Made by a program: the position numbers and the translations under genes. From Escherichia phage BF17: DNA of 64,000 bases. Below, piece by piece: positions 1,610-61,266 of the stretch. The notes under the pieces were generated by a model, which saw nothing but the letters and a program-made list of their open reading frames with translations, had not been told where the DNA came from and searched no databases. Location of the stretch: sequence record MW822008.1. One strand, given 5' to 3'. The first letter of the stretch is position 1; each line of letters begins with the position of its first letter.

Positions 1610-1870
1610 AAAACAAATATTATCAGGTTACCGTAATAACACGTTGCACTACAATGACTTAAAGTACTGGGTTGACCCCCACAACAATAAGTCATTGTTG
1701 CTGTACAGAGATAAATTTCGAGATTTGTACGGTATATATGACACACAGTTAATATACTTAGTTGATACCGAACATTTTGCTCCTATAGTATACCTGTACT
1801 GCTTGTATAATTCCAAATAACTATTAGCACCTCTAAATAATGTATATAAACATTAATGAGGTGCTTTTTT

Positions 1871-2662
1871 ATGTCTTACGATTATATGGGTGGAAACCCA
1901 GATGCTCCAAACTTTGATCATCGTGAAAAACTGAAAGATGTTATCACTCAAATGTTAGGTGCTGGTGCAGTTGAAGTTGAAATTACTGATGGTCAATTGG
2001 AAATTGCGATTGATAATGCGGTATCAAACTACCGAGCATGGAGTTCTGCTTCAAAAGAAGAAGCATTCTTGAACATGAAATTCTATGATTCACAATCTGT
2101 ATACATGCTTCCTACTGAAGTTGAAATTGTTAAACAGATTTATCGTTATGGTAACGGTTATCTAAGTTCTGGTAGTGGTAACTCAGTTGACCCTTTTTCA
2201 CTTGCATTTACCAACACTTACCTTTTAACGTCTGCACGTAACGCTGGTGGTTATGACTTAACTACTTATGATTTTAGTTTTCAATTCCAAGAATTAGTTG
2301 GGCGTATGTTTGGTAGAGAAATCATCTTCCAGTTCAACCCAATGACCAAAAAACTAATAATTGATCGTGATATTCGCGGTACTGAAGAAGTGCTATTACA
2401 TGTATATCATAATATACCTGAACCATTGCTATTCCAACGTCAACAAAGCTATCCTTGGCTACGTGACTGGGCATTGTCTGAAGCTATGATTATGTTGGGT
2501 CGCAACCGTGCTAAATTTGCTACATTGCCTGGACCACAGGGTACATTCTCTATGGATGGTGATACATTACGTAATGAAGGTGCACAACTTCAAGAACAGC
2601 TTAAAGAACAGTTGAAGAGATACAAAGATGGTGGTGATCCACTTGGAATGATTATCGGATAA
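1871..2662 (+). CDS. hypothetical protein
   Basis: ATG at 1871 has GAGGTG RBS (ORF track begins at 1856); followed by strong terminator. Confidence 0.5.
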   Translation: MSYDYMGGNPDAPNFDHREKLKDVITQMLGAGAVEVEITDGQLEIAIDNAVSNYRAWSSASKEEAFLNMKFYDSQSVYMLPTEVEIVKQIYRYGNGYLSSGSGNSVDPFSLAFTNTYLLTSARNAGGYDLTTYDFSFQFQELVGRMFGREIIFQFNPMTKKLIIDRDIRGTEEVLLHVYHNIPEPLLFQRQQSYPWLRDWALSEAMIMLGRNRAKFATLPGPQGTFSMDGDTLRNEGAQLQEQLKEQLKRYKDGGDPLGMIIG

Positions 2663-15115: not shown

Positions 15116-15158
15116 AAAGGAACTGATAAGTTAAAAATTCTTTTAACACAGTTCCTTT
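15116..15158 (+). promoter_or_regulatory. long stem-loop in 5' leader of the AAA+ gene
   Basis: AAAGGAACTG ... CAGTTCCTTT 10-bp inverted repeat with nested GTTAAAA/TTTTAAC stem. Confidence 0.45.
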
Positions 15159-15184
15159 ACTTTTGCCCACGGATTGGCTATAAT
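15156..15184 (+). promoter_or_regulatory. possible third promoter (TTTACT-N17-TATAAT)
   Basis: TATAAT 15179-15184 with weak -35 at 15156-15161. Confidence 0.35.
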
Positions 15185-23495: not shown

Positions 23496-26400
23496 TTAAG
23501 CAGTACGTTGTGCAATGAACAAATCAGTAACTGAACTTACACCATCATAAATTACTTGGTAAATGGTCACGCTACCAGCAGTTTTGTTTAGTTCACCATC
23601 AACAACAGCATAAGTACCATCAGTTGTAAAGTTTCTGTTACCAGTTGTATCTTGTTTAACATAGATGTATACTGATGCAGCTTTACCACCACCAATTAGG
23701 CCAGTAATTGGAGCCAACGTGGTATCTTGGTCTAGAGTGATGAAGTATACGTTACTTGTACCATCTGGAGTCCATGTTCCGGTTGGAGCAATTACTGATG
23801 ATGTAACTTGAGTTGGGATTACATCATACTTTTTGGTAGTTACTGTTGTAGTAGTTAAGTTAGCATTAGTAGTGGTTAGTTCACCAGTTACTGTTACTGC
23901 CTTATCAAACACAGCATTTTCTTTAAATGATGAAGTTGCATTAACGGTTAGAACGTCAGCCGCTGCGTCACCTAATGTTACGTTACCATTCGCAGTTAGT
24001 GCTCCTGTTACTGCTAGTGTTCCACCTACTGTTGCGTTACCAGTAACGGATGCACTTGCAAGTGTAGCCAAACCTGATGTTGTAATTGTAGAAACGGTTG
24101 TTGCACCGAATCCAGCAGTACCAGTTGCAGAGATATTACCACCTACTGTTAGGTTACCAGCAGTGATACCAACAGTACCAGTGATGTTTGCACCACTTGA
24201 CATAGTTACTGCACCACCAAATGAACCAGTAGTAGTAACTTCTAAAGTATTACCTTTAAGCAATCCAGTTGCAGTGATAGAAGTACCAGCAGTAATTGAA
24301 GTGTTAGCAGTAATTGAAGTGCCAGCCGCTACGTTGTTAGTTGCAGTCAAAGACTTAACAGCTACATCGGAATCTGCTTGGTTCAATTGTGCATTTAGTA
24401 CACCAGTAACAGTAAAGTCACCGTTGTTTACAACGTTACCATTAACGATTAGGTTGTTGTTTTGTGAACCGACTTCACCAATTGTTGCAGAACTTGAAAT
24501 AATTGCCGCACCAGCAGTAATATTACCAGCAGAAGATAAAGAATCGGATGCTATTACTGCAAACGGTTCTAGTGTTTGTCCACCAACATCGATATCTGCG
24601 TTAATACCACCTTCAACACGTAGTTTACCAGCAATATAAGTGTCTGGCATAATCTGTACAGTTTCAGGCTGCTCACCTAATGGTGTACCAACTGTTAGAG
24701 TTGCACCAGTTTTAACAGAACCTAGTGTTGTTTGACCAACTACACCTAGTGTACCACCAACGGTTGCGTTGTTAGTTACTGCTAGACCAGTTCCTGAACC
24801 ATTCAAGGTTGCAGATGGAGCAGTTACTGCACCAGAAGTTAGTGTTCCACCAATTGTTGCTAAACCAGTTACACCTAATGTTCCACCAAGGGTAGTATTA
24901 CCTGTCGCATTTAATGTTTCAGATAGAGTTAGTGTTTTAGCAGAGATATCTGCACCAGTTAGATCTAAGCTACCAGGAGTTAGTGTTCCAACTACAGTTA
25001 CATCGTTACCAAATGTCGCAGCACCAGTAACACCAAGAGTAGTACTGAAAGAGCCACTTGTTGCAGATACACCAGAAGTTACGATAGAACCAAGTGATGC
25101 TTGACCAGTTACTCCTAATGTACCACCAATAGTTGCATTATTAGTTACTGCTAGTGCAGTACCAGTACCGCTTAGGGTTGCCGATGGAGCAGTTACTTCA
25201 CCAGTTACACCTAATGTTCCACCTACTGTTGTGTTACCACCAAAGGAAGCTGCACCATCAGAGTGAATAGTTTCAGATACTGACAAACTCTTAGCTGTAA
25301 TGTCAGCAGTTGTTAGGTCTAAACCACCTGCTGGTGTGAATACACCTTCAACAGTTACATCGTTGTCAAATGTAGCTGCACCAGTAACATCCAATGTAGA
25401 ACTAAATGTACCAGTACTACCAGATACAGCACCGGAAACCAATGAACCAACAGTTGTTACACCAGTAATATTCGCAAGACCAGTTACAGTCAATGGACCT
25501 GAAGATAATGAGCCAGTTACACCTAATGTTCCACCAACGGTCGCATTGTTAGTAACACCCAAACTACCAGCATTCACTGTGCCAGATGCAGTAACATCAG
25601 TAGTACTTACACCACCACTTAGTGTGCTTAGGCCAGTTGCAGTGATGGTTGAAGCAGTTGCAAGACTATTAGCAGAAATATCTGCACCAGTTAGGTCAAT
25701 ACCACCTTGTGGAACCAATTCACCTTCAACTGTTAGTTTCTGAACAGTACTATCACCAGATACATTTAAGGATGCAGCACTTAGTGCAGCTACTGTACTT
25801 TGACCAGTTACATTTAAAGTGGTGTTTACTGTAGTGTTGTTTAAAGTTGTATCACCGGATACTAATATAGCGTTGGTATTGATACCACCAGCATCAACTT
25901 GAATACCACCAGTGCTTACAGTTACTTTCTTGCCGATATTTACAATATCAGTTAGGGTAGTTGCACCAGTTACTGAAGCAGTACCTGCGACTGAAAGGTT
26001 TCCAGATACGGATGGGCTACCAGTTACAACACCAGTTGTTAGTACTAGGTTACCACCAACGGTAGTATTTCCAGAACTAGCAAGGGTAATTGCTGAAACA
26101 TTGGAAGAACTTAAATCAATTGAACCATTAACAACTAGGTCACCACCAATTGTAGCACCTTCTGTAGTACTTAGGGATTTAGAACTAATATCGGTAGTAC
26201 TTAGGTCGATAGAACCAGGAGTAACAGTGCCAGATACGGTCAAATCACCAGTAATAGAAGCACTTTTCGCAATGTCAATTGTATCATTAACAGAACTAAT
26301 ATTATTAACATTTAATATACCATTAATGTTTGCATTATTGTCAACACGTAAACCTTCACCAACTCCATTTAGTACAATACTTGTAGCTGTTACTTCAGTA

Positions 26401-29216
26401 GCAGATACTTGTTTTAGTGTACTTGAACCAGTTGTTTCAATAGTATCTGCACGGACAGCACCAATAGTTGCATCAGTAGTAATTAGTTTTGGTAGAGTGC
26501 TAGAATTCACTGTATCAGAAACTGTAATAACACCAGCACTTGTAATTGTCTCTGCACTTGCAAGAGATTTCACAGACACATCAGCAGCACTTAGATCAAC
26601 TGTACCTGCTACCACAAGATCGCCACCAATTGTAGCACCTTCAGTTGTGGTTAGAGACTTAGAACTAATATCAGTAGTACTTAGGTCAATTGCACCAGGG
26701 GTCAATGTCCCAGATACGTCCAAATTACCAGTGATTGTAGTGTTATTGTTAATTGCTACACCATCAGCATTGCTGATTGACGCAGTTTCAACAGATGCAC
26801 CTTTTAATACGCCAGTAGCGGTAATGTTAGTTGCAGAAGTAATAGCACCAGAAGCGTTAACACCAGCTAGAGTTGATGTACCAGTTACATTTAGTGTGGT
26901 AGCATTTGCAGTGGTTGCAGTTACTGTGGTAATATTAGCTTCAGTACTGGAAAGTTTAGGTAGAACACTACTTACTGTACCTTCAGAACTAATAACTGCA
27001 CCAGTACTGGTTAGAGATTTAACAGCAACGTCAGCAGCACTTAGATCAACTGTACCTGCAACAACTAGGTCACCACCAATGATAGCACCTTCAGAAGTTG
27101 TTAGAGACTTAGCATCAATATCAGTAGTACTTAGGTCAATTGAACCAGGGGTAAGATTTCCAGTCACAGATAGATTACCTGCAATTGAAGTGTTGTTTGT
27201 TATTGACACACCAGCAGTGTTGCTAATGATTGCAGTTTCAACAGAAGATGCCTTTAGAGCACCAGTTTCAACGCTACCAGATTTAGAAAGACCAGTTACT
27301 ACAGATGATGCACCAGAAATTTCACCAGTTGCTGTAATAGTAGAGCCAGAAATTGCAGTACCTGCAATTGCACCAGTACTATTGATTGAAGTTGCTGTAA
27401 CACCAGCAAGAGTTGATTCACCAGCAACAGATAGAGTTGTTGTAACATCAACTTTGTTTGGAGCAATATCAAGACCGTCAACGTCAGCGATTGCAGTTAC
27501 ACCAGTTGAAGTTCCAGTTACTACCAAGTCTTTAACAGTGATTGTTTGACCAGTTACGGTTACATCACCACTGAAAGTGCCAGCTACAGCAGATAAATCG
27601 CCACTAAAGGTTGCGTTATCACCGCTAACATCCCCAGTAAAGGTTGCACTTGTACCGGATACTCTATCACTGAAGATACCTTTAGAACCACTAACATCAC
27701 CACTGAAAGTACCAGAGGCAGCAGATAATGCACCAGTAACAGTTGCAGCACCACCAACTTGTAGAGATGAACCTACAGTTGTTTGACCAACTGATTCAAG
27801 AGTTTGACCTTTGATTGCTTCAGCAGCAACTACTGATTTAGGAGTTAGATCTTGTCCACTCACATCAACAGTTAGGCCAGTTACAGTACCTGTAAATTCA
27901 ACATCATTAAGAATTGCTTTACCACCAACTTGTAGTTGTGGAGTTGCAGGGTTTTGTGTTGCGTTACCAGTAATTGTTAGATAATCTAATTTGTTTAGAC
28001 CATTACCAGTAATACCATAGGTAGATAGTGCAGCAGAACCGAAGGTTGCAGTTTGTAGAACGTTCAACTTAGCAGGAGACATTAGTTCAGATTGAACTTC
28101 GTTTGCTAACAAGACTGTTGGACGTGCACTAGGTGCAGTATATGCAAAACCTAGCTTAACGTTAGCATCAGCGGTATTTTGACCCAAATTGATTGCTTTG
28201 AATGTTGCAGTACTTGCTAGACCAGTGATGTTTGCACCCAATGTAACTGCACCAGTTAGTGCTGAAGCACCGGATACTGATAATGTTGTTGCTTGGATAT
28301 CATCTAAATCAAAACTACCACCAATAGTACCAGATACGTTGATGTTGTTAAAGTTTGCAGTACCAGAACTTTCGATATTAGGAATAGTTGCTACACCAGT
28401 TACTTCTAAATCAACAACTTTAGTTTTACCTTTAGTTACTTCAAGTAAAGGAGTGGTTGGTGATTGAATTGCGTTACCAGAAATAGTTACATAATCTAAT
28501 TTGTTTAAACCATTACCTGTAATACCGTAAGTTGAAAGTGAAGAATCACCAAATGTTGCAGTTTGTAGAACATTCAACTTAGCTGGTGACATTAGTTCGG
28601 ATTGAACTTCGTTCTGTAGAAGAACGGTTGGTCGTTGTCCTGGAACGGTGTAACCAAAGTTTAGTCTATATGCTTGACCTGCTTCATTAGGCCCGATACG
28701 AATATCACGGAAGTTTGCAGTACTTGCAAGACCAGTGATATTTGCACCCAATGTGACTGAACCAGTTAGTGCTGAAGCACCAGACACATTAAGTGTTGTA
28801 GCATTAATATCAGAAAGATTAAAAGTACCACCAAGTGTACCAGAAATGTTTACATCTTTAAAAGTTGCTGTGCCAGTTGAAGTAATATCAGTTGATTCAA
28901 CAGAATCAAATGATCCTGAATTAGCTTCTAAATTATCAAATTTTGCAGTTGTTCCGACAGCAGCAGTAATGTTTCCTGCAAATGTCGCAGCACCTGAAAC
29001 ATCAGCACCACCGGATAAGGTTGCCTTACCAGCAACATCCAATGCACCTGTGACATTCACAGAACCAGCGGTAATTGCAGTGAATACTGCGTTAGCAAAA
29101 GACACTTCCCCATTAACCGTTAGGTCATTACTGAATACTGCATTACCTTTGACCAAAAGATCCTTACCTACCGTGGAATTACCAGATACATCAAGATCCG
29201 TTTTAATCGAGTACAT
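23496..29216 (-). CDS. giant repeat-containing tail fibre protein (1906 aa)
   Basis: G/T/S/A/V-rich beta-repeat composition; paralogous to 29366-34282 (shared MYSIKTDLD start and TPDGT..VYIYV C-terminus); internal tandem repeats. Confidence 0.7.
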   Translation of the reverse strand: MYSIKTDLDVSGNSTVGKDLLVKGNAVFSNDLTVNGEVSFANAVFTAITAGSVNVTGALDVAGKATLSGGADVSGAATFAGNITAAVGTTAKFDNLEANSGSFDSVESTDITSTGTATFKDVNISGTLGGTFNLSDINATTLNVSGASALTGSVTLGANITGLASTANFRDIRIGPNEAGQAYRLNFGYTVPGQRPTVLLQNEVQSELMSPAKLNVLQTATFGDSSLSTYGITGNGLNKLDYVTISGNAIQSPTTPLLEVTKGKTKVVDLEVTGVATIPNIESSGTANFNNINVSGTIGGSFDLDDIQATTLSVSGASALTGAVTLGANITGLASTATFKAINLGQNTADANVKLGFAYTAPSARPTVLLANEVQSELMSPAKLNVLQTATFGSAALSTYGITGNGLNKLDYLTITGNATQNPATPQLQVGGKAILNDVEFTGTVTGLTVDVSGQDLTPKSVVAAEAIKGQTLESVGQTTVGSSLQVGGAATVTGALSAASGTFSGDVSGSKGIFSDRVSGTSATFTGDVSGDNATFSGDLSAVAGTFSGDVTVTGQTITVKDLVVTGTSTGVTAIADVDGLDIAPNKVDVTTTLSVAGESTLAGVTATSINSTGAIAGTAISGSTITATGEISGASSVVTGLSKSGSVETGALKASSVETAIISNTAGVSITNNTSIAGNLSVTGNLTPGSIDLSTTDIDAKSLTTSEGAIIGGDLVVAGTVDLSAADVAVKSLTSTGAVISSEGTVSSVLPKLSSTEANITTVTATTANATTLNVTGTSTLAGVNASGAITSATNITATGVLKGASVETASISNADGVAINNNTTITGNLDVSGTLTPGAIDLSTTDISSKSLTTTEGATIGGDLVVAGTVDLSAADVSVKSLASAETITSAGVITVSDTVNSSTLPKLITTDATIGAVRADTIETTGSSTLKQVSATEVTATSIVLNGVGEGLRVDNNANINGILNVNNISSVNDTIDIAKSASITGDLTVSGTVTPGSIDLSTTDISSKSLSTTEGATIGGDLVVNGSIDLSSSNVSAITLASSGNTTVGGNLVLTTGVVTGSPSVSGNLSVAGTASVTGATTLTDIVNIGKKVTVSTGGIQVDAGGINTNAILVSGDTTLNNTTVNTTLNVTGQSTVAALSAASLNVSGDSTVQKLTVEGELVPQGGIDLTGADISANSLATASTITATGLSTLSGGVSTTDVTASGTVNAGSLGVTNNATVGGTLGVTGSLSSGPLTVTGLANITGVTTVGSLVSGAVSGSTGTFSSTLDVTGAATFDNDVTVEGVFTPAGGLDLTTADITAKSLSVSETIHSDGAASFGGNTTVGGTLGVTGEVTAPSATLSGTGTALAVTNNATIGGTLGVTGQASLGSIVTSGVSATSGSFSTTLGVTGAATFGNDVTVVGTLTPGSLDLTGADISAKTLTLSETLNATGNTTLGGTLGVTGLATIGGTLTSGAVTAPSATLNGSGTGLAVTNNATVGGTLGVVGQTTLGSVKTGATLTVGTPLGEQPETVQIMPDTYIAGKLRVEGGINADIDVGGQTLEPFAVIASDSLSSAGNITAGAAIISSSATIGEVGSQNNNLIVNGNVVNNGDFTVTGVLNAQLNQADSDVAVKSLTATNNVAAGTSITANTSITAGTSITATGLLKGNTLEVTTTGSFGGAVTMSSGANITGTVGITAGNLTVGGNISATGTAGFGATTVSTITTSGLATLASASVTGNATVGGTLAVTGALTANGNVTLGDAAADVLTVNATSSFKENAVFDKAVTVTGELTTTNANLTTTTVTTKKYDVIPTQVTSSVIAPTGTWTPDGTSNVYFITLDQDTTLAPITGLIGGGKAASVYIYVKQDTTGNRNFTTDGTYAVVDGELNKTAGSVTIYQVIYDGVSSVTDLFIAQRTA
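24266..24490. repeat. near-identical ~210-225-bp segment shared with 30093-30300, with 18-bp unit copy-number difference
   Basis: Direct read: CCAGTTGCAGTGATAGAAGTACCAGCAGTAATTGAAGT ... CACCAATTGTTGCAG in both genes; this copy has an extra 18-bp unit (GTSITA x3 vs x2). Confidence 0.8.
26100..27260. repeat. three tandem copies of a ~450-bp coding repeat within the 1906-aa fibre gene
   Basis: Recurring block ...CTTAGGTCAATTGAACCAGGGGT... ; protein repeat TPGxIDLSTTDISSKSL.TTEGATIGGDLVVAGTVDLSAADV x3. Confidence 0.7.
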
Positions 29217-29316
29217 AGAGTCCCCTCCTATAACGATGAACTATATATTCATAACCCATCTTTTGTTAATATACTTATATTTAGTTTAATTCACAAAAAC
29301 ACTATTATCTAATACA

Positions 29317-29345
29317 AAAGAAAAAGCCAACTAAAAAAGTTGGCT
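29317..29345 (-). terminator. intrinsic terminator between the two fibre genes
   Basis: AGCCAAC/GTTGGCT hairpin followed on minus strand by TTTTCTTTT. Confidence 0.6.
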
Positions 29346-29365
29346 TTAATTATTAATTTAAAATG

Positions 29366-32300
29366 TTATACACGTTGTGCAACGAAGGTATCAAACACAG
29401 TACTGAAACCATCATAGATTACTTGGATAATACTTGTTTGACCAACTACAGCACTTACTGTACCAGAAACTACAGAGTATGCACCACCGAAGGTGAAAGT
29501 AGTATCAGCAACAGATGGAGTTACATAGATATACACTGAACATGCTTGACCACTACCAATTAGACCCGCGATGGAATCCATTGTAACACTTTGGTCAAGA
29601 GTTAAGCGATATACGTTAGTAGTACCATCTGGTGTCCAAGTGCCACCTACAGCAGCAGTAGAAGCAGTAACACTAGCAGGGATAACAGAATATTTCTTAG
29701 TTACCATGTTGTTTGTAGTGAAGTTTGCAGTGGTGGTGTTAATAGAACCAGTCACTGTTAGGTTCTTATCAAATGTTGCGTTCTCTTTAAATGTAGATGT
29801 TGCATTTACAGTTAAAGTATCAGCAGCAGCATCACCAATCACAGTGTTACCATTTGCAGTTAATGTACCACCTACAGTTAGATCACCAGTTACAGATGCA
29901 CTTGCCATTGTAACAGCACCAGTTGTAGTAATGGTTGTTGCAGTTAGTGCTTGGAAGCTTGATTCTTCTGTTGCAATTACTGAACCATCAACATGCATGT
30001 CACCACCTGAAACATCAGCACCACCTAGTAGGCTTACTTTACCACCGAACGAACCAGTAGTCGTGATAACAAGAGAGTTACCATTCAATGCACCAGTTGC
30101 AGTGATAGAAGTACCAGCAGTAATTGAAGTACCAGCCGCTACGTTGTTAGTTGCAGTCAAAGACTTAACAGCTACATCGGAATCTGCTTGGTTCAATTGT
30201 GCATTTAGTACCCCAGTAACGGTGAAGTCACCATTAGTTACTACGTTACCATTAACAGTTAGGTTGTTGTTTTGTGAACCAACATCACCAATTGTTGCAG
30301 CTTTAGAAACGATGGTTGCACCAGAAGTAATGTTACCAACAGCAGATAGTGTTGCAGCAGCTTCAATTGCATATGGTTCTAGTGTTTGACCACTTACGTC
30401 GATTTCAGCGTTAATACCACCGATTACACGCAATTTACCAGCAATATAAGTATCTGGAATGATCTGTACAGTTTCAGGTTGTTCACCAACTGGAGTACCA
30501 ACAGTTAGGGTTGTGCCAGTTTTCACTGCACCAGTAGCTGTTAGTGAAGATACAGTAGTAGCACCAGTAACATCTAGAGTGCCAGTTACACCCAAATTAC
30601 CACCAACTGATGCGTTTGCAGTAGAAGTTAAACTTCCAACAGTTGCTAGACCAGATGCAGTCACAGTAGAAGTACTAACACCACCACTTAGAGTACTTAG
30701 GCCAGTTGCATTGATAGTTGTTGCAGTAGTTAGACTATTAGCAGTAATGTCTGCACCGCTTAGGTCAAGACCACCTTGTGGGATCAATTCACCTTGGACA
30801 GTTAGTTTCTGAACAGTACTGTCACCAGAAACTGTTAGTGATGTCGCAGATACACCTGCTAGAGTAGAAGCACCAGTTACACCTAAAGTTCCAGTAATGG
30901 AAGTTCCTGCTAGAGTAGAAGCACCAGAAACGTTAATTGTGTTAGTATTGATACCACCATCAACTACCTGAATACCACCAGTACTCACTGTTACTTTCTT
31001 ACCGATATTAACAATATCAGTTAGGTTAACAGCACCAGTTACACCAAGAGTTCCACCGATTGTTGTATTACCAGAGATAGCTGGGCTACCAGTCACAACA
31101 CCAGTTGTTAGTACTAGATCAGTTCCAACAGTAGTAGAACCAGTACTTGCTAGACTTGCAGCTACAAGGTTAGTTGCACTTAAGTCGAATGCACCATCTA
31201 CAGTTAGGTCACCAGCAATGTGTGCGTTACCTAGTGAATCAAGAGATTTAACGGTTACATCAGTATTGCTTAGGTCGATTGAACCAGCAGTTAGTGTACC
31301 AGATACAGCTAAATCACCAGTGATTGCAGTATTTTTTGCAATATTAAGAGAAGCAGCAGTTGTTGTTAAAGAACCAACAGTTGCAATGCCACCAACAGAT
31401 AATGCACCACCAACGTTTGCATCATTATCAACTTGAAGACCAAGGCCACTACCAGAAAATTCAGCACTAGTAGCAGTTACTTGAGTAGCTGATACACTTT
31501 GTAGTACACTGTTGCCAGTTGCATTAATAGTACCTGCATTTACTGTAAAGAGTGTTGCATCAGTTGAAGTAATTTTAGGTAACGAACTAGTATTGGTTGA
31601 ATCGGTAACGGTAATAACACCAGCACTTGTAATTGTCTCTGCACTTGCAAGAGATTTCACAGACACATCAGCAGCACTTAGGTCAAAAGTACCATCAACT
31701 ACTAAGTTTCCACCAACATTAACATCAGCAGTAGTAGTTAGTGAGTTTGCAGTAATATCAACAGTTGTTAGATCAAGACCACCTTCAGGTTTGAATACAC
31801 CAGTGACAGTTAGATCTTTTGCCGCGACAACATTACTTGCTAGATTTAGTGTACCAGCACCAGCAGCTTCAGCTTGTAAAGTTGGAACTGTTACAGAAGT
31901 TGTGATTGTTGCAGTACCAGAAGACAAACGCGAACCAGATACTACACCAGTACTAGTTAGTGTTCCTACTTTCGCTGCACCAGTAGTAGTTAGTGTTCCA
32001 CCTGAAACGTCACCAGTTGCGACAACAGAAGATGCATTAATTACACCAAATGTACTTGGGTTAGTTGCACTAACTGATTTTGTTACTACATCAGCAGCAG
32101 ACAAATCAATAGCACCAGTTACTGCAAGAGAACCACCCACAGTTACGTTACCAGTAGTTGTTAAAGAAGCAGCACTTACATCAGTAGTGCTTAAATCTAT
32201 ACTACTCGGAGTTAGTGTTCCAGTAATAGTTACGTTATTAGCAAAAGTAGTGTCACCAGTAATACTTGGAACAGTTAGTGAAGCCATAGAACCAGCACCA

Positions 32301-34282
32301 GTTACTGCAAGAGAACCACCAGATAGTGCACCAGCCGCAGTTACTGTATTACCAGATACAGACGCACCAGTAACATCACCAGTACTGGTTACTGAACTAG
32401 CAGTTAGGCCAGCTAAAGTAGTGTCCCCAGCAACAGATAGTGTTGTTGTAACATCAACTTTATTTGGGGCGATATCAAGACCATCAACATCAGCTTGGGC
32501 AGTTACACCAGTAGTTGTACCAGTTACTACTAAATCACGTACAGTTACAGTTTGACCAGTAACGCTAACATCACCACTGAAAGTACCTTTAGCAGCACTT
32601 ACGTCACCAGTGAAGGTTGCAGCAGTACCAGTTAGTGCACCAACAACATTAGCTGTTCCACCAACTTGTAGGTTAGTTCCTACGGTGGTTTGACCAACAG
32701 ATTCAAGGGTTTGTCCTTTGATTGCTTCAGCAGCAACAACAGATTTAGGAGTTAGGTCTTGACCACTTACATCAACTGTTAGGCCAGTTACAGTACCAGT
32801 GAATTCAACATCATTTAGTACTGATTTACCAGCTACTTGTAGTTGTGGTGTTGCTGGACTTTGTGTACCATTACCAGTAATAGATAGATAATCTAGTTTG
32901 TTTAGACCGTTACCTGTGATACCATAGGTTGCAAGAGATGCATCACCAAAGGTAGCAGTTTTTTGTACATTTAGTACTGCTGGAGATACTAGTTCAGACT
33001 GAATTTCATTTTGTAGAATTACAGTTGGACGAGCACCAGGGGCAGAATAAGCAAAACCATACTTAACGTTAGCATCGGCTGCGTTTTGTCCTAAACTTAC
33101 TGCTTTAAAATTAGCAGTACTATTAGCACCGGAAATATCAGCACCCAAAGTTACACCACCAACAAGGCTAGTTAATCCAGAAACAGTTAGAGTGTTTGCT
33201 TCAATATCATCAAGACTGAAAGTACCGCCGAGTGTACCAGATACGTTGATGTTATTAAAATTAGCAGTACCAGTACTTTCAATGTTAGGAATAGTTGCAG
33301 TTCCTGTTACTTCGAAATCATGAACTTTAGTTTTACCTGAAGTTACTTGTAATAGTGGAGTTGTTGGATCTTGAACAGAGTTACCAGATACTGTTAGGTA
33401 ATCTAGTTTGTTTAGACCATTACCAGTAATACCAAAAGTGGATAATGACGAATCACCAAAAGATGCAGTTTTCAATACACTTAGGGTAGCTGGAGACATC
33501 AATTCTGATTGGATTTCGTTCTGTAGAATTACAGTTGGACGAAGACTTGGAGCAGAATAGTTAAAGCTCAAACGGTAGTTAGTGTTTGCAGCATTGGAAC
33601 CAATTTTAATATCACGGAAGTTTGCACTACTATTCACACCAGTAATGTTGGAACCTAATGTAACACCACCTTGTAGACTGGTCAAACCAGAAACAGTTAG
33701 AGTTGTTGCATTAACATCAGATAGACTAAATGTTCCACCTAGTGTACCGGAAATATTCACATCTTTAAAGTTTGCAGTTCCAGTTGATGTAATATCAGTA
33801 GTTGCAGTGTTTGTGAATGTTGCATCAGTTGCAGTTATTGTGTCAAATGCTGCGGTAGTGCCAGTTTCAGCAGTAATGTTACCTTTAAATGAAGAAGTTC
33901 CAAGAACATCCATTGATGCCACTTGGGTATCTTTTAGTACAGCAGTGCCAGCGGTTTGTGTTAGGTTACCTGCCATTGATACTGGGCTTTGGAATTGTGC
34001 ATTAGAATTAATCGTTGCAGTATCAGAACCAACAGGTAAATTACCAATTACGGAATTACCATGAACTTCAATTCCACCATTCAATGATGCTTTACCAGCA
34101 ACATCTAGTGTAGATGAAATGTCTACAGTTTCTGCTTCAATTGCAGTGAATACAGCGTCAGCAAAAGTTACAGTTCCATTAACTGTTAGATTTTTATTGA
34201 ATACTGCATCGCCTTTCACAAGAAGATCTTTAGCAACCGTTGCACCACCAGTTATATCGAGATCTGTTTTAATCGAGTACAT
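29366..34282 (-). CDS. giant repeat-containing tail fibre protein (1638 aa), paralogue
   Basis: Same composition and shared N- and C-terminal modules as 23496-29216; GGAGGG RBS. Confidence 0.7.
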   Translation of the reverse strand: MYSIKTDLDITGGATVAKDLLVKGDAVFNKNLTVNGTVTFADAVFTAIEAETVDISSTLDVAGKASLNGGIEVHGNSVIGNLPVGSDTATINSNAQFQSPVSMAGNLTQTAGTAVLKDTQVASMDVLGTSSFKGNITAETGTTAAFDTITATDATFTNTATTDITSTGTANFKDVNISGTLGGTFSLSDVNATTLTVSGLTSLQGGVTLGSNITGVNSSANFRDIKIGSNAANTNYRLSFNYSAPSLRPTVILQNEIQSELMSPATLSVLKTASFGDSSLSTFGITGNGLNKLDYLTVSGNSVQDPTTPLLQVTSGKTKVHDFEVTGTATIPNIESTGTANFNNINVSGTLGGTFSLDDIEANTLTVSGLTSLVGGVTLGADISGANSTANFKAVSLGQNAADANVKYGFAYSAPGARPTVILQNEIQSELVSPAVLNVQKTATFGDASLATYGITGNGLNKLDYLSITGNGTQSPATPQLQVAGKSVLNDVEFTGTVTGLTVDVSGQDLTPKSVVAAEAIKGQTLESVGQTTVGTNLQVGGTANVVGALTGTAATFTGDVSAAKGTFSGDVSVTGQTVTVRDLVVTGTTTGVTAQADVDGLDIAPNKVDVTTTLSVAGDTTLAGLTASSVTSTGDVTGASVSGNTVTAAGALSGGSLAVTGAGSMASLTVPSITGDTTFANNVTITGTLTPSSIDLSTTDVSAASLTTTGNVTVGGSLAVTGAIDLSAADVVTKSVSATNPSTFGVINASSVVATGDVSGGTLTTTGAAKVGTLTSTGVVSGSRLSSGTATITTSVTVPTLQAEAAGAGTLNLASNVVAAKDLTVTGVFKPEGGLDLTTVDITANSLTTTADVNVGGNLVVDGTFDLSAADVSVKSLASAETITSAGVITVTDSTNTSSLPKITSTDATLFTVNAGTINATGNSVLQSVSATQVTATSAEFSGSGLGLQVDNDANVGGALSVGGIATVGSLTTTAASLNIAKNTAITGDLAVSGTLTAGSIDLSNTDVTVKSLDSLGNAHIAGDLTVDGAFDLSATNLVAASLASTGSTTVGTDLVLTTGVVTGSPAISGNTTIGGTLGVTGAVNLTDIVNIGKKVTVSTGGIQVVDGGINTNTINVSGASTLAGTSITGTLGVTGASTLAGVSATSLTVSGDSTVQKLTVQGELIPQGGLDLSGADITANSLTTATTINATGLSTLSGGVSTSTVTASGLATVGSLTSTANASVGGNLGVTGTLDVTGATTVSSLTATGAVKTGTTLTVGTPVGEQPETVQIIPDTYIAGKLRVIGGINAEIDVSGQTLEPYAIEAAATLSAVGNITSGATIVSKAATIGDVGSQNNNLTVNGNVVTNGDFTVTGVLNAQLNQADSDVAVKSLTATNNVAAGTSITAGTSITATGALNGNSLVITTTGSFGGKVSLLGGADVSGGDMHVDGSVIATEESSFQALTATTITTTGAVTMASASVTGDLTVGGTLTANGNTVIGDAAADTLTVNATSTFKENATFDKNLTVTGSINTTTANFTTNNMVTKKYSVIPASVTASTAAVGGTWTPDGTTNVYRLTLDQSVTMDSIAGLIGSGQACSVYIYVTPSVADTTFTFGGAYSVVSGTVSAVVGQTSIIQVIYDGFSTVFDTFVAQRV

Positions 34283-34358
34283 TTAGTTCCCTCCAAATAG
34301 GCAAAAAGCATAAAATACATTTGACCTTGTTAATATACATATATTTAGTTATTGATAT

Positions 34359-34402
34359 AAAAAATCCAGACTAGATGAATCATAGTCTGGACTATTTTTT
34401 TT
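34359..34402. terminator. bidirectional-type hairpin terminator
   Basis: TCCAGACT ... AGTCTGGA 8-bp stem flanked by A6 and T8. Confidence 0.6.
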
Positions 34403-35300
34403 ATTTACCGGAAATTACTATTTTACCACTAAACGCTTCGTCAGAAGTGAATGTAACATTACCACTTGCATCAATTTGAGTTTCGGTTATTACCAGTTCA
34501 AATGGTGATGCTGCTGTGCTGCCTGGAGTTTTATTTGAATAAATTGAAATATACAAATTATCAGGTGTTTGGTTATGTTCAGACGCGGGGATAGTAATGG
34601 TGTATTCATCACTAGATACTACCCAATCCGCTTGGTTAATTAATTTACTATAAGGTACTGTCATTGTTGTTGCTCCTATGATGTTGACTTTGACACTTGT
34701 ATAATCAGTGATTTGACCAATAACATCAATCGTAATGTCACCAATACCACTCACAGTGACGTTAGTTTGGAATACAGTGTCAAGTGGGATGTTACCAGGG
34801 TCACCCTGTAGCTGAACCATAATATCTGGTCCACGACCATGTACTGATTCAGGTAAAGAATAAGTATATTGATCTGTTGTTCCAGGAACTAATGTAAATG
34901 CCGATACAGGAACGATTTCAGTAGTAACGTAAGAACTATCAGTACCTGGAGTTGTGCTTTGGAGAGGTTTCCAAACACCAAGGTCTTTAATATAGATCTG
35001 AATAATATTAGTACTGTCAACTAAGAAGTAAGCGTCACCATCTACACCGATTGATTCAGATGGTGCAATAGTTCCACGTAAAATACCGGAACCGCCACCA
35101 CCACCGCTATGTGTATTCAAATAACCCAATGTAACCAAGTGTGTATTTGCGGTTGGGTCACCTGCTGAAACAGGAAGAAGTTGTGTACCCGTGTAGTTCT
35201 GGATTTGAACAACATTACCATTAGTGGCAATTTGTGCACCATTTTTACCAAGTATGAAGGTCTTCTTCATGGTTCCTTCTAAATTAGAAAAAACTGCCAT
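34401..35300 (-). CDS. short tail fibre / receptor-binding protein sharing N-terminal module with the tailspike
   Basis: Starts MAVFSNLEGTM, identical to start of 35315-37456; G-rich linker then beta-rich domain. Confidence 0.5.
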   Translation of the reverse strand: MAVFSNLEGTMKKTFILGKNGAQIATNGNVVQIQNYTGTQLLPVSAGDPTANTHLVTLGYLNTHSGGGGGSGILRGTIAPSESIGVDGDAYFLVDSTNIIQIYIKDLGVWKPLQSTTPGTDSSYVTTEIVPVSAFTLVPGTTDQYTYSLPESVHGRGPDIMVQLQGDPGNIPLDTVFQTNVTVSGIGDITIDVIGQITDYTSVKVNIIGATTMTVPYSKLINQADWVVSSDEYTITIPASEHNQTPDNLYISIYSNKTPGSTAASPFELVITETQIDASGNVTFTSDEAFSGKIVISGK

Positions 35301-37470: not shown

Positions 37471-38634
37471 TTAAATGTTATCTTGAATAGGCTGAATAGG
37501 TGCTTGCCATGATAAAGTACAAACGATCTTCATTTCACCAAATGAACTGTTGTTTACGGAATCATTGAATACACAAGAAATGATTTCATCTTTACTTGAC
37601 ACTTCATGGTTGGTTTCGTTAACAATGTAACGCATTTTGCGGTTGATATCGAAATAATCAACAGGTGCAATTACAGTACCACCAATATCTTCTTGTGCTT
37701 CACCACCGAAACGTACAAACATTTCACTTACTGGTTCATCATATGCTTGGTTAATATCAACTTCGATATTAGTTACTAGGTATCCAGCAGGGCATGTACC
37801 AATAACTAACAATGCGTTGGTCCATGAATGATCAATAGTGTTGATGATAACAACTGTATCTTTACCTGGTTCACCCTGAATACCTGGTTCACCTTGCTTA
37901 CCTTCTTCACCGTCTTTTCCACGGAATAAGATGCCAGCACTCCACTCTTTAGTTGGGGTGGATGATGTAGTTACGATATCAACATAATACAAATTACCAT
38001 CAGTAGTGTTATAGAAGCAATAATCTTGTGGTAGATTATCAATGCTTGGGAATTGACTACCAGTACTATCAATGTGGAAACGACCACGTAGACCCTGTTC
38101 ACCACGGAAAGGAACACCATCACTCCATGTTGCAGTTACGCTTTGATAGAAATATAATTTACCATCTTCAGTATTATAGAAGGTATAGTTATTGACGAGG
38201 CCAGTTGTTGGAAACACAGTACCGGAACTGTCAATGTGGAATGGTTTACCAGCTTCACCAGTATCACCTTTACCAAACTCTACACGGTTCCAAGTACTAA
38301 TTGTTTCTTGTGCATCGTTTGATTTAAAATATAAAGTACTAGTGCCGTTTGCAAGACTAAGATAACACCACCCTAGTTCTTCACCAACACGGAAGAGTTC
38401 ATTAGGAACTTCAAAACCTATCTCATTTGGATAAAAGTTTCTACCGTTAGCACCATTTTGTCCAACCACTAGACCTAAGTCTTGGATTGTATTGTCGGAA
38501 TAGGTTACAATTAAATGTCCAGCAGCGTTAATAACTAAACTTTTGATGCCAGAATTATTACATGAACCACCTGACCCATTGTTGAATGAAATTGTCATAA
38601 TATTTCCCTTGTATGAGTTAATGTCATATACCAA
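37471..38634 (-). CDS. fibre-like protein with collagen-like G-X-Y run
   Basis: GKDGEEGKQGEPGIQGEPGKD (7 G-X-Y triplets); duplicated FHIDS.G..FP motif; first gene of the operon. Confidence 0.5.
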   Translation of the reverse strand: MVYDINSYKGNIMTISFNNGSGGSCNNSGIKSLVINAAGHLIVTYSDNTIQDLGLVVGQNGANGRNFYPNEIGFEVPNELFRVGEELGWCYLSLANGTSTLYFKSNDAQETISTWNRVEFGKGDTGEAGKPFHIDSSGTVFPTTGLVNNYTFYNTEDGKLYFYQSVTATWSDGVPFRGEQGLRGRFHIDSTGSQFPSIDNLPQDYCFYNTTDGNLYYVDIVTTSSTPTKEWSAGILFRGKDGEEGKQGEPGIQGEPGKDTVVIINTIDHSWTNALLVIGTCPAGYLVTNIEVDINQAYDEPVSEMFVRFGGEAQEDIGGTVIAPVDYFDINRKMRYIVNETNHEVSSKDEIISCVFNDSVNNSSFGEMKIVCTLSWQAPIQPIQDNI

Positions 38635-38707
38635 TATTTATCAGTACAAAATACATTTCGTTGCCATTAATAAATAAATGAAAGTTCACTACTAAAAGGG
38701 CTTAACA

Positions 38708-39205
38708 ATGGCATTAAGATCAAAAGACTTCCTCTTCAAAAGAAAAACTAAAGATGGTTCATGGCAAGAATTTCCTGAATCAGATAGCTGGTATCCTGCT
38801 AACTTAGATTATCATTGGAACGAACAAACATTACCATTAGCTAGTGGCGGCTATTATGGTAGTACTACAGGATTACATACAATATCCTTTACCCTACGTA
38901 ACTTCATTGGTAGAATTTACGTACTCGCTACACTGGCAAGTAATCCATCTGACGATGATTGGTTCCCAATTAAATTTACCGAAAGCTGCAACTTCTATCT
39001 TGAATTTACTGATAATGTCATTCTTAACCCAAATGGTGGTGACCTTATTAGAGAACAAGGTACAACTGGTACATTCGCTGAAACCTTAACCGGAAACTTT
39101 ACCTATCTGAAAGTTGGTATTGACCGTGATTACATTAGCAAGTATCCATCTGATGTACAAAAAAGTTTAGCTGGTAAGTTAGAACAAATTTTAATTAACT
39201 ACTAA
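38708..39205 (+). CDS. hypothetical protein
   Basis: 165-aa ORF with AAAGGG RBS, divergent from fibre operon. Confidence 0.45.
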   Translation: MALRSKDFLFKRKTKDGSWQEFPESDSWYPANLDYHWNEQTLPLASGGYYGSTTGLHTISFTLRNFIGRIYVLATLASNPSDDDWFPIKFTESCNFYLEFTDNVILNPNGGDLIREQGTTGTFAETLTGNFTYLKVGIDRDYISKYPSDVQKSLAGKLEQILINY

Positions 39206-44325: not shown

Positions 44326-44353
44326 TTGACAAACGCAAAGAATGTGATATAAT
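44326..44353 (+). promoter_or_regulatory. sigma70-type promoter (TTGACA-N16-TGnTATAAT) for ClpA-like gene
   Basis: TTGACA 44326-44331, TGTGATATAAT 44343-44353; same architecture as P1/P2. Confidence 0.7.
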
Positions 44354-44391
44354 GTTTATTAATTAGAGTGACTACTCATTTAGGAGAATAC

Positions 44392-46680
44392 ATGAATCTT
44401 ACCCAATTGTTCAAAAAAAGCGACGAACTGGCAACTTCTCTGGGTCATACCTTCTTGACTATTGACCATCTAAGTGCTACAGTACTGACAATCGATAGCA
44501 TCAAAGCAGTGTTTGAGGATATGAACATCGATGCAGAGAAACTACACGGTCGTTTGATTGCATATCTGAAAAATACAGCATTCCCACATGCACCTAAAAG
44601 TGCTGATGGTGATGAAGCGAACCGCACATCACTTCTTGTGAACCGTGTAGTTCAGGAACTTTCTAAGAAATCAGTAATTGAGCAACTTAAACGTGATGAT
44701 TTCTCAATTGATGCTTATTTTGTACTGTTTGAGTGTTTGTCCTTCCCAAATACTGCACTAGAAGCAGCATTGCGTGAAGAGGGTATCACTTGTACTGAAG
44801 CAGCACGAACTCTTCAGAAGCACGTAGAAGCAATCGACAACGGAATTAACCTTCAAAGCATTAGTGATGAACCAACTGGGGAGAAAAAAGTGGCACAACA
44901 GCAACCATCGTCCAAACAAAAAGGTTTAGAAGATTACACCACTAACCTAACCGCACTTGCAAAAGAAGGTAAACTTGACCCAATGATTGGTCGCCAGAAA
45001 GAGCTTTCTGCACTGATTGAAACTCTGGCCCGTAAGACTAAGAAAAATGCTATCCTGACTGGTGAAGCTGGTGTTGGTAAAACGCAAATTATTGATGGTC
45101 TAGCACAGGCAATCGCTGATGGTGAAGTACCAGAGCATCTTAAAGATGTTGAAATTCTGTCTCTGAACGTAGGTGCACTGACTGCTGGTACTAAGTACCG
45201 TGGTGAGTTCGAAGAACGTATCGATAACCTACTAAAAGAACTGAAGAAACGTGAAAACACTATTGTGTTCATCGATGAAATCCATATTATGGTTGGTGCT
45301 GGTTCAGCAAGCAACGGTTCTATGGATATGAGCAACATGCTCAAACCTGCACTATCTCGTGGTGAGATTCGTGTAATCGGTGCAACAACTTACGATGAAT
45401 ATCGTAAAAACATCGAAAAAGATAGTGCACTAACTCGTCGTTTCATGAAAATTGATGTAGTTGAGCCAACAATTGATGAAACCCGTGCGATTGTGAATGG
45501 TTTGAAATCTACTTATGAAACTTTCCATAACGTAGAGTTCAGTACTGAAGCAATGGATGCAGTTATTACACTAAGTGATAAGTTCCTGAAGAACAAACAC
45601 TTCCCTGACAAAGCAATCGACCTAATGGATGCGGCAGCAGCGAAAGTACGTTCTCGTGAAACTGATGATAACATCATCACTGTTGCACTGATTCAAGAAG
45701 TTGTTGCAGGTATCGCAAACCTAGATATTAACGTGGTTGCTTGCACTGAAAGTGAACGTATGCGTAATCTACCAGATGCACTCCGTTCTCGTGTATACGG
45801 TCAAGAAGAAGCAGTACAGAAACTGGTTGATAACGTGATGGTAGCTCGTGCTGGTCTGCGTGATAAATCAAGTGTTCAAGGTGCATTCATGTTTGTTGGG
45901 CCATCTGGTACTGGTAAAACTGAAATTACCAAAGCACTGGCTGATGCAACTGGTTCTGAACTGATTCGTTTCGATATGTCCGAGTTTTCACAGGAACATA
46001 CTGTTGCTAAACTGATTGGTTCACCTCCAGGCTATGTTGGTCACGATTCTGGTAACGGTCTGCTACTCGACAAGATTGAGCAGTTCCCGAATGCAGTACT
46101 GTTGCTTGATGAAATCGAAAAAGCTGATCGTAAAGTACTACTAACCTTCCTACAGGTTCTGGACGAAGGACGTTTGACTGGTTCACAAGGTAAAACTGTT
46201 TACTTCAATAACGTAACTGTTATTATGACAACTAACCTTGGTGCAGCAGATTCAACCAAGCGTAGTATTGGGATGAGCGGTAGTGACACAGCACAAGATA
46301 AAGCGATTAAAGCATTCTTGCCACCTGAATTCATCAACCGTATCGATAGTATTGTGACATTCAAAGACCTAAGCAGCGAAGCGATTGACAGCATCATTGA
46401 TAAGTTCATGGGAAGTTTGAATGAACAAATCAAAGACCGCAAAGTTAAAGTTTCACTGACCAAAGCGGCACGTGAGTGGTTGGCAACAAATGGTGTTAAA
46501 GTTGGGATGGGTGCACGTCCAATGAAACGCACTATTGAGCAAAACATCCGTGTCCCACTAGCTAAAGAGATGTTGTGTGGTTCTCTGGTTAATGGTGGTA
46601 ACGTAACGTTTGATGTGATTGATGGTAAATTGGCTATCAAACCTAAACGAACTAAAGCAGTAGAAAAAGTTATTGCGTAA
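44392..46680 (+). CDS. ClpA-like two-ring AAA+ unfoldase (Clp/Hsp100 family)
   Basis: D1 Walker A GEAGVGKT and B IVFIDEIH; D2 Walker A GPSGTGKT and B LLLDEIE; sensor GARPMKR; no ClpB middle domain; SIGMSG loop where ClpA has IGL; ATG 44392 with TAGGAG RBS (track starts at GTG 44368). Confidence 0.8.
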   Translation: MNLTQLFKKSDELATSLGHTFLTIDHLSATVLTIDSIKAVFEDMNIDAEKLHGRLIAYLKNTAFPHAPKSADGDEANRTSLLVNRVVQELSKKSVIEQLKRDDFSIDAYFVLFECLSFPNTALEAALREEGITCTEAARTLQKHVEAIDNGINLQSISDEPTGEKKVAQQQPSSKQKGLEDYTTNLTALAKEGKLDPMIGRQKELSALIETLARKTKKNAILTGEAGVGKTQIIDGLAQAIADGEVPEHLKDVEILSLNVGALTAGTKYRGEFEERIDNLLKELKKRENTIVFIDEIHIMVGAGSASNGSMDMSNMLKPALSRGEIRVIGATTYDEYRKNIEKDSALTRRFMKIDVVEPTIDETRAIVNGLKSTYETFHNVEFSTEAMDAVITLSDKFLKNKHFPDKAIDLMDAAAAKVRSRETDDNIITVALIQEVVAGIANLDINVVACTESERMRNLPDALRSRVYGQEEAVQKLVDNVMVARAGLRDKSSVQGAFMFVGPSGTGKTEITKALADATGSELIRFDMSEFSQEHTVAKLIGSPPGYVGHDSGNGLLLDKIEQFPNAVLLLDEIEKADRKVLLTFLQVLDEGRLTGSQGKTVYFNNVTVIMTTNLGAADSTKRSIGMSGSDTAQDKAIKAFLPPEFINRIDSIVTFKDLSSEAIDSIIDKFMGSLNEQIKDRKVKVSLTKAAREWLATNGVKVGMGARPMKRTIEQNIRVPLAKEMLCGSLVNGGNVTFDVIDGKLAIKPKRTKAVEKVIA

Positions 46681-60740: not shown

Positions 60741-61229
60741 TTATACGGATTCGACGATGCGAGCCATCTTCTCCGCTCTGGATGTGGTTTGTTTGTACCA
60801 CGAACTATCACGCATTTCTTTACCAGCAGTTTTATAATCCCCACGACCGAGAGCAGCCATCGCTTTTTTGAAATTTAAAACTTTTGATTTACCCATTTGG
60901 AACACCATAAACCACAATACACGCTGAACCTGTACTGGAGCAGTCATTCCAAATTGATCATAGATTGATTTTGCGTCATTGTAAGCGGTCTGAGCATCTT
61001 TTATAAGGAGAGCATCAGCTTCTGCTTCAGTGAGTCCATTTTTGAAACTTTCACCCTTAAGTACAAGGTGACCGTAACCAATGGTATCAAGACCTAGACT
61101 GTCTTTATATACCCAAAACTTATCATTTTTAAAATAACCAAGTTTTTTCTGATACGCAATAGTACCTTCAAATTCTTTAATTTCTTTAAAAAATTGTTCG
61201 TCGGTATTTTTGATTTCCCATTTACTCAT
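60741..61229 (-). CDS. endolysin, T4-lysozyme family (GH24)
   Basis: EFEG...YKDSLGLDTIGYGH with Glu/Asp/Thr at T4L positions E11/D20/T26; MVFQMGKSKV and SSWYKQTTSRAEKMA motifs. Confidence 0.85.
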   Translation of the reverse strand: MSKWEIKNTDEQFFKEIKEFEGTIAYQKKLGYFKNDKFWVYKDSLGLDTIGYGHLVLKGESFKNGLTEAEADALLIKDAQTAYNDAKSIYDQFGMTAPVQVQRVLWFMVFQMGKSKVLNFKKAMAALGRGDYKTAGKEMRDSSWYKQTTSRAEKMARIVESV

Positions 61230-61266
61230 AAAGATTTCCTCATTATTATTTATAGTACTGAAATAT

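Follow-up and report, generated by a model that had tools for sequence, protein, structure and literature searches.

Late transcription in phage T4 is directed by a single 8-bp box, whose first base stands at -13 and which spans -13 to -6, with no -35 element and with AT-rich DNA just downstream (PMC2988020). The late promoters of the Aeromonas phage Aeh1, which belongs to a different phage lineage and whose consensus was derived in silico, carry a/gC at -13/-12, the same departure from T4 that gives ACTAAATA, the box described below (PMC2988020). Closer to the phage studied here are CBB and GAP32, Rak2-like phages of the same group, for which the CBB paper predicted a late promoter, ATAAATA, resembling the T4 box TATAAATA and located before structural genes. 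That motif, which came from MEME applied to upstream regions only, includes CTAAATA variants in Supplementary Table S7 (for example CTAAATATAATATA), where the entry Porf_226 (ATAAATACTTGAAA) is the late promoter predicted before CBB_226, an orthologue of the fibre genes considered here. The same paper describes a gp55-like sigma in CBB and found no homologues of gp33 or gp45 there, which suggests that the sliding-clamp activation step of T4 may not apply and leaves it in doubt for the present phage too. The literature that we searched yielded neither promoter predictions nor start-site data for the genus Asteriusvirus, nor any mapped start sites for this phage clade: the fEgEco12 paper does not mention promoters, and the RNA-seq paper on PA5oct reports only TATAATA/TTGAC-type promoters.

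The DNA analysed here, a 64,000-nucleotide stretch of Escherichia phage BF17 (MW822008.1; hereafter the window), is from a Rak2/121Q-like jumbo coliphage of the genus Asteriusvirus, with WPEC3 (98.6% identity over 8 kb), WPEC5, CMSTMSU and Ecwhy_1 as its closest records. Two giant tail-fibre genes, both on the minus strand, lie at 23496-29216 (fibre gene A, 1906 aa) and 29366-34282 (fibre gene B, 1638 aa); they are tandem paralogues with ~75-84% nucleotide identity, and the genes around them are virion genes encoding sheath, tube, baseplate and tail proteins and a colanic-acid depolymerase. A sequence-only reading of the window had drawn attention to a 24-bp element, present in two copies with one mismatch some 45-70 bp upstream of the fibre starts, and had proposed it as a candidate late promoter or activator site specific to the fibre genes. 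Both copies lie where that reading placed them (TTGTTAATATACTTATATTTAGTT for copy A and TTGTTAATATACATATATTTAGTT for copy B; Table 1), differ at a single position (23/24 identical) and span 46-70 nt and 45-68 nt upstream of their ATGs; the coding-strand sequence that it gave, AACTAAATATA[A/T]GTATATTAACAA, is also correct, and we parse it as AA-CTAAATA-TA[A/T]GT-ATATTAACAA. With up to three mismatches allowed, the window contains no further match, and 100 dinucleotide-preserving shuffles produced none. A genome-wide motif search, which the same reading had suggested as a check, finds the full 24-mer nowhere but at the two fibre genes in the 384-kb genome of WPEC3 (assembled from eight pieces, with word counts made on 361.6 kb of unique sequence), where the next-best matches have at least five mismatches.

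The two loci share one order on the coding strand: upstream stop codon, terminator, 24-mer, a leader of ~40 nt, GGAGGG and ATG. Pairwise alignment of the copies shows that the upstream terminators are unrelated and the downstream leaders unalignable, and likeness between the loci returns only from the GGAGGG ribosome-binding site and the coding sequence. The 24-mer thus stands as an isolated block of identity and is not the edge of a larger duplicated stretch, and the possibility that it merely belongs to a larger duplicated 5' region with no conservation of its own falls away, the flanks having diverged around it. Because the fibre genes are paralogous, the two promoters probably share ancestry; because the gene upstream of each ends in a terminator, each fibre gene needs a promoter of its own.

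Table 1. Coordinates of the predicted control features upstream of the two giant fibre genes (positions in the window)
Feature	Position	Strand	Remarks
24-bp element, copy A, AACTAAATATAAGTATATTAACAA	29263..29286	-	Fibre gene 23496-29216; predicted -14 to +10 of late promoter
Late-promoter box ACTAAATA, copy A, predicted -13 to -6	29278..29285	-	Heptamer CTAAATA at 29278-29284; geometry from PMC2988020
Predicted transcription start +1 (A), copy A	29272	-	Sixth nt past heptamer; predicted 56-nt leader
Intrinsic terminator hairpin, end of upstream fibre gene B	29323..29347	-	Followed by T-run; palindromic, also called on +
Shine-Dalgarno AGGAGGGG, fibre gene A	29222..29229	-	5 nt before ATG 29216-29214
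24-bp element, copy B, AACTAAATATATGTATATTAACAA	34327..34350	-	Fibre gene 29366-34282
Late-promoter box ACTAAATA, copy B, predicted -13 to -6	34342..34349	-	Heptamer at 34342-34348
Predicted transcription start +1 (A), copy B	34336	-	Predicted 54-nt leader
Terminator-like hairpin after virion structural gene 34401-35300	34365..34391	-	9-bp stem, 9-nt loop, then TTTTTTATAT
Shine-Dalgarno GGAGGG, fibre gene B	34289..34294	-	6 nt before ATG 34282-34280

Several features of these intergenic regions lie outside the element. The hairpin that ends fibre gene B is a perfect palindrome; since its plus-strand side continues with AATTATT and no T-run, it probably works mainly for the minus strand. The hairpin upstream of copy B was read directly from the sequence, the automated terminator scan having allowed loops of at most 8 nt. 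The leader downstream of copy A (29217-29262) has GA(A)TGG(G)TTATG in common with the corresponding leader of phage JNE01 (446-500), and the ribosome-binding site and start of JNE01 (GGAGGGAACTAAATG) match copy B; the fibre leaders thus look mosaic, suggesting recombination among fibre upstream regions.

We regard it as very probable, from the sequence analysis set out here, that each 24-mer is a T4-type late promoter together with the start region of its fibre gene. In T4 numbering the element resolves into A (-14), ACTAAATA (-13 to -6), TA[A/T]GT (-5 to -1), A (+1) and TATTAACAA (+2 to +10). Host RNA polymerase carrying a phage gp55-like late sigma would read it, with ACTAAATA serving as a variant of the T4 box, the AT-rich TA[A/T]GT as the melting segment, and the invariant A six nucleotides past the box as +1, so that ATATTAACAA would supply the first ten nucleotides of an mRNA predicted to begin AUAUUAACAA. 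The likeness to T4 late promoters extends to one short AT-rich box where a -10 element would stand, the lack of a -35 element, AT-rich DNA downstream that would melt (TA[A/T]GT and then ATATTAA at the fibre genes), placement in front of virion genes, a divergent gp55-like sigma encoded in the genome, and avoidance of the word elsewhere. The box itself differs: ACTAAATA agrees with that of T4 at 6/8 positions, the general word here is [A/C]TAAATA, and the fibre genes have AC, not TA, at -13/-12.

The core of the element is far more widely distributed than the element as a whole. There are 21 copies of [A/C]TAAATA in the window, 14 of them within the 4% of the sequence that is intergenic, and all 14 of these aim at a gene on the same strand, 0-61 nt off. 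In the unique sequence of WPEC3, ATAAATA occurs 48 times, as against 141-243 times for most permutations of the same composition, and 33 of the 48 copies (69%) are intergenic although intergenic DNA makes up 8% of the genome, with 29 lying at most 100 nt upstream of a same-strand gene. This genome-wide depletion suggests that spurious late promoters within genes are selected against; TAAATAA, which overlaps ATAAATA, is also low in WPEC3, at 65 copies. The 39 intergenic WPEC3 sites lie before mostly virion genes, including those for the major head protein, portal, prohead protease, sheath, tube, baseplate and fibres, and such sites are almost missing from the arrays of small early genes. When the 39 sites are aligned on the heptamer, one further column is informative, the sixth nucleotide after it, which is A at 25/39 and a purine at 32/39; A/T is enriched genome-wide in the columns directly downstream of the box, and GTATA follows the heptamer at 23% of sites, compared with 2% of random intergenic windows. 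Upstream of the heptamer this 39-site profile holds no information of a -35 kind. The proposal that the element is a candidate late promoter is thus well supported by sequence analysis, in that the phage's general late word follows a terminator, a virion gene comes next, and the nucleotide at the predicted start is a conserved A. The idea of an activator site finds no support, since late promoters of the T4 type work without a sequence-specific activator (PMC2988020) and nothing is conserved upstream of -14. Specificity to the fibre genes does not hold for the core, [A/C]TAAATA being found before ~39 other, mostly virion, genes; it holds for the 3' extension only.

Other heptamer sites in the window have arrangements of their own. 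In the 73-bp gap between a tail-protein gene (37471-38634, minus strand) and a structural gene (38708-39205, plus strand), heptamers at 38623-38641 (-) and 38670-38689 (+) point apart, in what looks to be a divergent pair of late promoters, and 121Q conserves nearly all of the gap. The baseplate hub gene (60741-61229) is preceded by two heptamers 17 nt apart on the minus strand, at 61247-61270 (ATAAATATTTCAGTACTATAAATA), the second of them a perfect T4-type TATAAATA. For the head-tail adaptor (1856-2662, plus strand), the longest open reading frame begins at 1856, the form used in the 121Q annotation, whereas the WPEC3 start lies 15 nt further downstream, at window position 1871; this second start has a GAGG Shine-Dalgarno sequence, and CTAAATA (1833-1839) would then lie 31 nt upstream.

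A sigma factor fitting this reading is encoded in a near-identical genome. WPEC3 CDS382, which in that 98.6%-identical genome lies ~3.4 kb past the right edge of the window, hits two PHROG families: 'sigma factor for late transcription' (phrog_12791, E=1.4e-152) and 'late sigma transcription factor' (phrog_234, 1.5e-16). A phmmer comparison of CDS382 with PDB sequences gave no match, and Pfam gave nothing significant; its probable kinship to T4 gp55 is drawn from the PHROG families and from the domain hit in the CBB paper. The fibre promoters would presumably depend on this late sigma and act late in infection.

To follow the element beyond the two copies we turned to orthologues picked through the fibre protein, a choice that leaves the set unbiased by the motif. 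A tblastn search of GenBank phages with the fibre N-terminus gave 58 phage records, of which 13 were taken, with 72% down to 36% identity. Across 15 fibre orthologues (36-100% protein identity; hosts from E. coli to Xanthomonas) the layout of terminator, [A/C]TAAATA, leader, GGAGGG and ATG is constant. When these are anchored on the heptamer, just TAAATA and the A six nucleotides downstream are conserved in all 15, neighbouring columns being at background and those upstream of -14 at a background identity of 0.36-0.46. The distance from heptamer to ATG varies between 35 and 62 nt, indicating that the block is not tied to the ribosome-binding site. In CBB the heptamer upstream of the fibre orthologue coincides with Porf_226, and the likeness to CBB and GAP32 extends to the motif, with its CTAAATA variants, and to the kinds of gene that it precedes.

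Within the genus the conserved block is longer. Seven Asteriusvirus sequences share an island that runs from 2 nt before the heptamer through the AA after ATATTAAC, essentially the 24-mer, with a mean identity of 0.83-0.96 against 0.39-0.46 in the flanks; in these seven, +1 to +8 (ATATTAAC) is 100% conserved. The fibre locus is the one part of the structural module that has diverged between the window phage and 121Q, and the blocks left there are the 24-mer (plus GGT) and the ribosome-binding site and start; the other late promoters gave no such footprint in the comparison with 121Q because their intergenic regions are 90-97% identical throughout. Mimasvirus, Eneladusvirus and other genera keep the heptamer and +1 and have a different conserved leader; CBB and GAP32 likewise lack the start region ATATTAACAA of the Asteriusvirus fibre promoters and have a conserved leader of their own. 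A search of IMG/VR with the fibre N-terminus gave no confirmed relatives. Scanning IMG/VR for TAAATAWWWRYATATTAAC returned at least 120 loci, and among the matches listed one truly lies upstream of a fibre gene (121Q type) and the rest are unrelated AT-rich sequences; the scan is uninformative on fibre specificity, since the likeness of the matches follows from the pattern itself.

The eight orthologues that do not belong to the 121Q-like Asteriusvirus set (Munch, EJP2, Hallingskeid, pEa12, GAP32, CBB, Yen9-04 and XbC2) have their Shine-Dalgarno sequence within a near-invariant A[A/T]TCCAA[C/T]GGAGGGATT, at ~478-498 of each locus with the ATG at 501. The inverted repeats AATCC and GGATT could pair and partly sequester the Shine-Dalgarno sequence, and five of the eight (pEa12, GAP32, CBB, Yen9-04 and XbC2) also have in common a leader, GAAATAA(A)TGATTTGGGATAAGTTTTTCCATATT. 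This motif and leader may control how the fibre mRNA is translated, as an element without counterpart in the window phage.

Which part of the Asteriusvirus element exceeds a general late promoter can be narrowed down. Non-fibre late promoters often begin ATA at +1, and 8 of 37 match ATATTAACAA at seven or more of its ten positions, compared with ~4% of background windows; the best of these 37 sites reaches 8/10, and none is higher. What appears, from these comparisons, to be both fibre-restricted and unexplained by general promoter features is only TTAACAA (+4 to +10), which is invariant in all seven diverged Asteriusvirus fibre upstream regions. Promoter escape or the 5' end of the mRNA could place a constraint on it, or it could be conserved as the site of a regulator or as an anchor for recombination. 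It is doubtful, in our estimation, that ATATTAACAA (+1 to +10), and TTAACAA especially, forms a dedicated control module of all Asteriusvirus fibre genes, acting as a regulator site, as a signal in the initially transcribed or 5'-end mRNA, or as an exchange anchor. If it did, the module would govern the very long messages for host-range fibres, in timing, level or stability, and the region could also anchor the exchange of fibre cassettes between phages.

One specific form of such control, a late promoter overlapped by the site of a fibre-specific DNA-binding regulator, with AATATA-NN-TATATT and ATATTAACAA together tuning fibre timing or level, we think unlikely. It would accommodate the confinement of the full 24-mer to two genes in 384 kb, the complete retention of ATATTAAC in seven Asteriusvirus regions with background flanks, and the ceiling of 8/10 positions at which other late promoters match the start region. 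The nearest precedent is T4 DsbA, which binds AT-rich sites overlapping the box at two late promoters, and it is a precedent of sorts only: binding is of low affinity, and the protein is non-essential, with no demonstrated effect and a role that is not known (PMC2988020). The dyad AATATA-NN-TATATT, however, is imperfect and has not been maintained, 121Q and A4 breaking it at different positions, and a TA-rich sequence will be partly palindromic by chance. No candidate regulator was identified; occupancy of -9 to +5 would mean repression, not activation; and in other genera, which retain the heptamer and +1, the downstream sequence is different.

Very unlikely, in our judgement, is that the conserved 3' part works as RNA, an unstructured AU-rich 5' end (AUAUUAACAA) serving the stability, processing or translation of the long fibre mRNAs. 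With +1 as predicted, ATATTAACAA would indeed be the mRNA 5' end, and both leaders are predicted to fold with it unpaired. Yet the leaders fold no better than shuffled sequences (z = -0.15 and 0.03), the 24-mer is without structure, there is no Rfam match at E<=1, and the spread of ~10 to 45 nt in the distance to the ribosome-binding site among orthologues argues against a fixed translational element. A structured cis-regulatory RNA leader was rejected on the same z-scores, the unstructured 24-mer and the Rfam result.

It is extremely improbable that TATATT within the element serves host sigma-70 as a -10 hexamer, with unmodified host polymerase reading the fibre genes. Such promoters can be drawn at both copies (TTGTGA-17-TATATT at copy A and TTTATA-18-TATATT at copy B, each 9/12), but the numbers of such matches do not exceed those in shuffles (4 versus 1.8 +/- 1.3, and 1 versus 1.1). 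Moreover, the -35 hexamers fall in non-conserved DNA and are absent from the 121Q-type orthologues, where the hexamer is CATATT, and good sigma-70 promoters in the window look quite different, as does TTGACA-16-TATAAT at 44326-44353. The sequence-only reading was right that the element does not match the early TTGACA/TATAAT promoters, the matches being weak (9-10/12), of shuffle-level frequency and with a non-conserved -35. A reading of the element as an antisense promoter was checked and rejected. That the element is a passive, functionless remnant of the tandem fibre-gene duplication is barely credible: the genes are indeed paralogues, but an element 96% identical stands between flanks that have both diverged to background, and orthologues keep the block even where the rest of their intergenic DNA cannot be aligned.

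Near-consensus sigma-70 promoters do occur elsewhere within the late, structural region, all on the plus strand. The one at 44326-44353 has a TGn extension and precedes a ClpA-like protease gene (44368-46680), and those at 15156-15184 and 2704-2720 stand before an ATPase gene at 15225 and a small open reading frame at 2742, respectively. Non-structural genes inside the virion module thus appear to retain promoters of an early or middle type.

Returning to the late-promoter reading, the near-identity of the two copies over 24 bp has, most likely, two sources: descent of the promoter together with the fibre gene when that gene was duplicated, and constraint on the start region and the initially transcribed sequence, which every Asteriusvirus fibre upstream region examined has retained. 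The fibre element is best read as one of ~40 late promoters in the genome, its orthologous site in CBB having been predicted earlier, and the understanding of late transcription in T4-related phages is unchanged by it. For the Asteriusvirus jumbo coliphages it contributes a testable model of the late promoter, [A/C]TAAATA at -12 to -6 with a purine start six nucleotides downstream, together with predicted starts for two host-range fibre genes that are of use in annotation and in engineering fibre expression in therapeutic phages.
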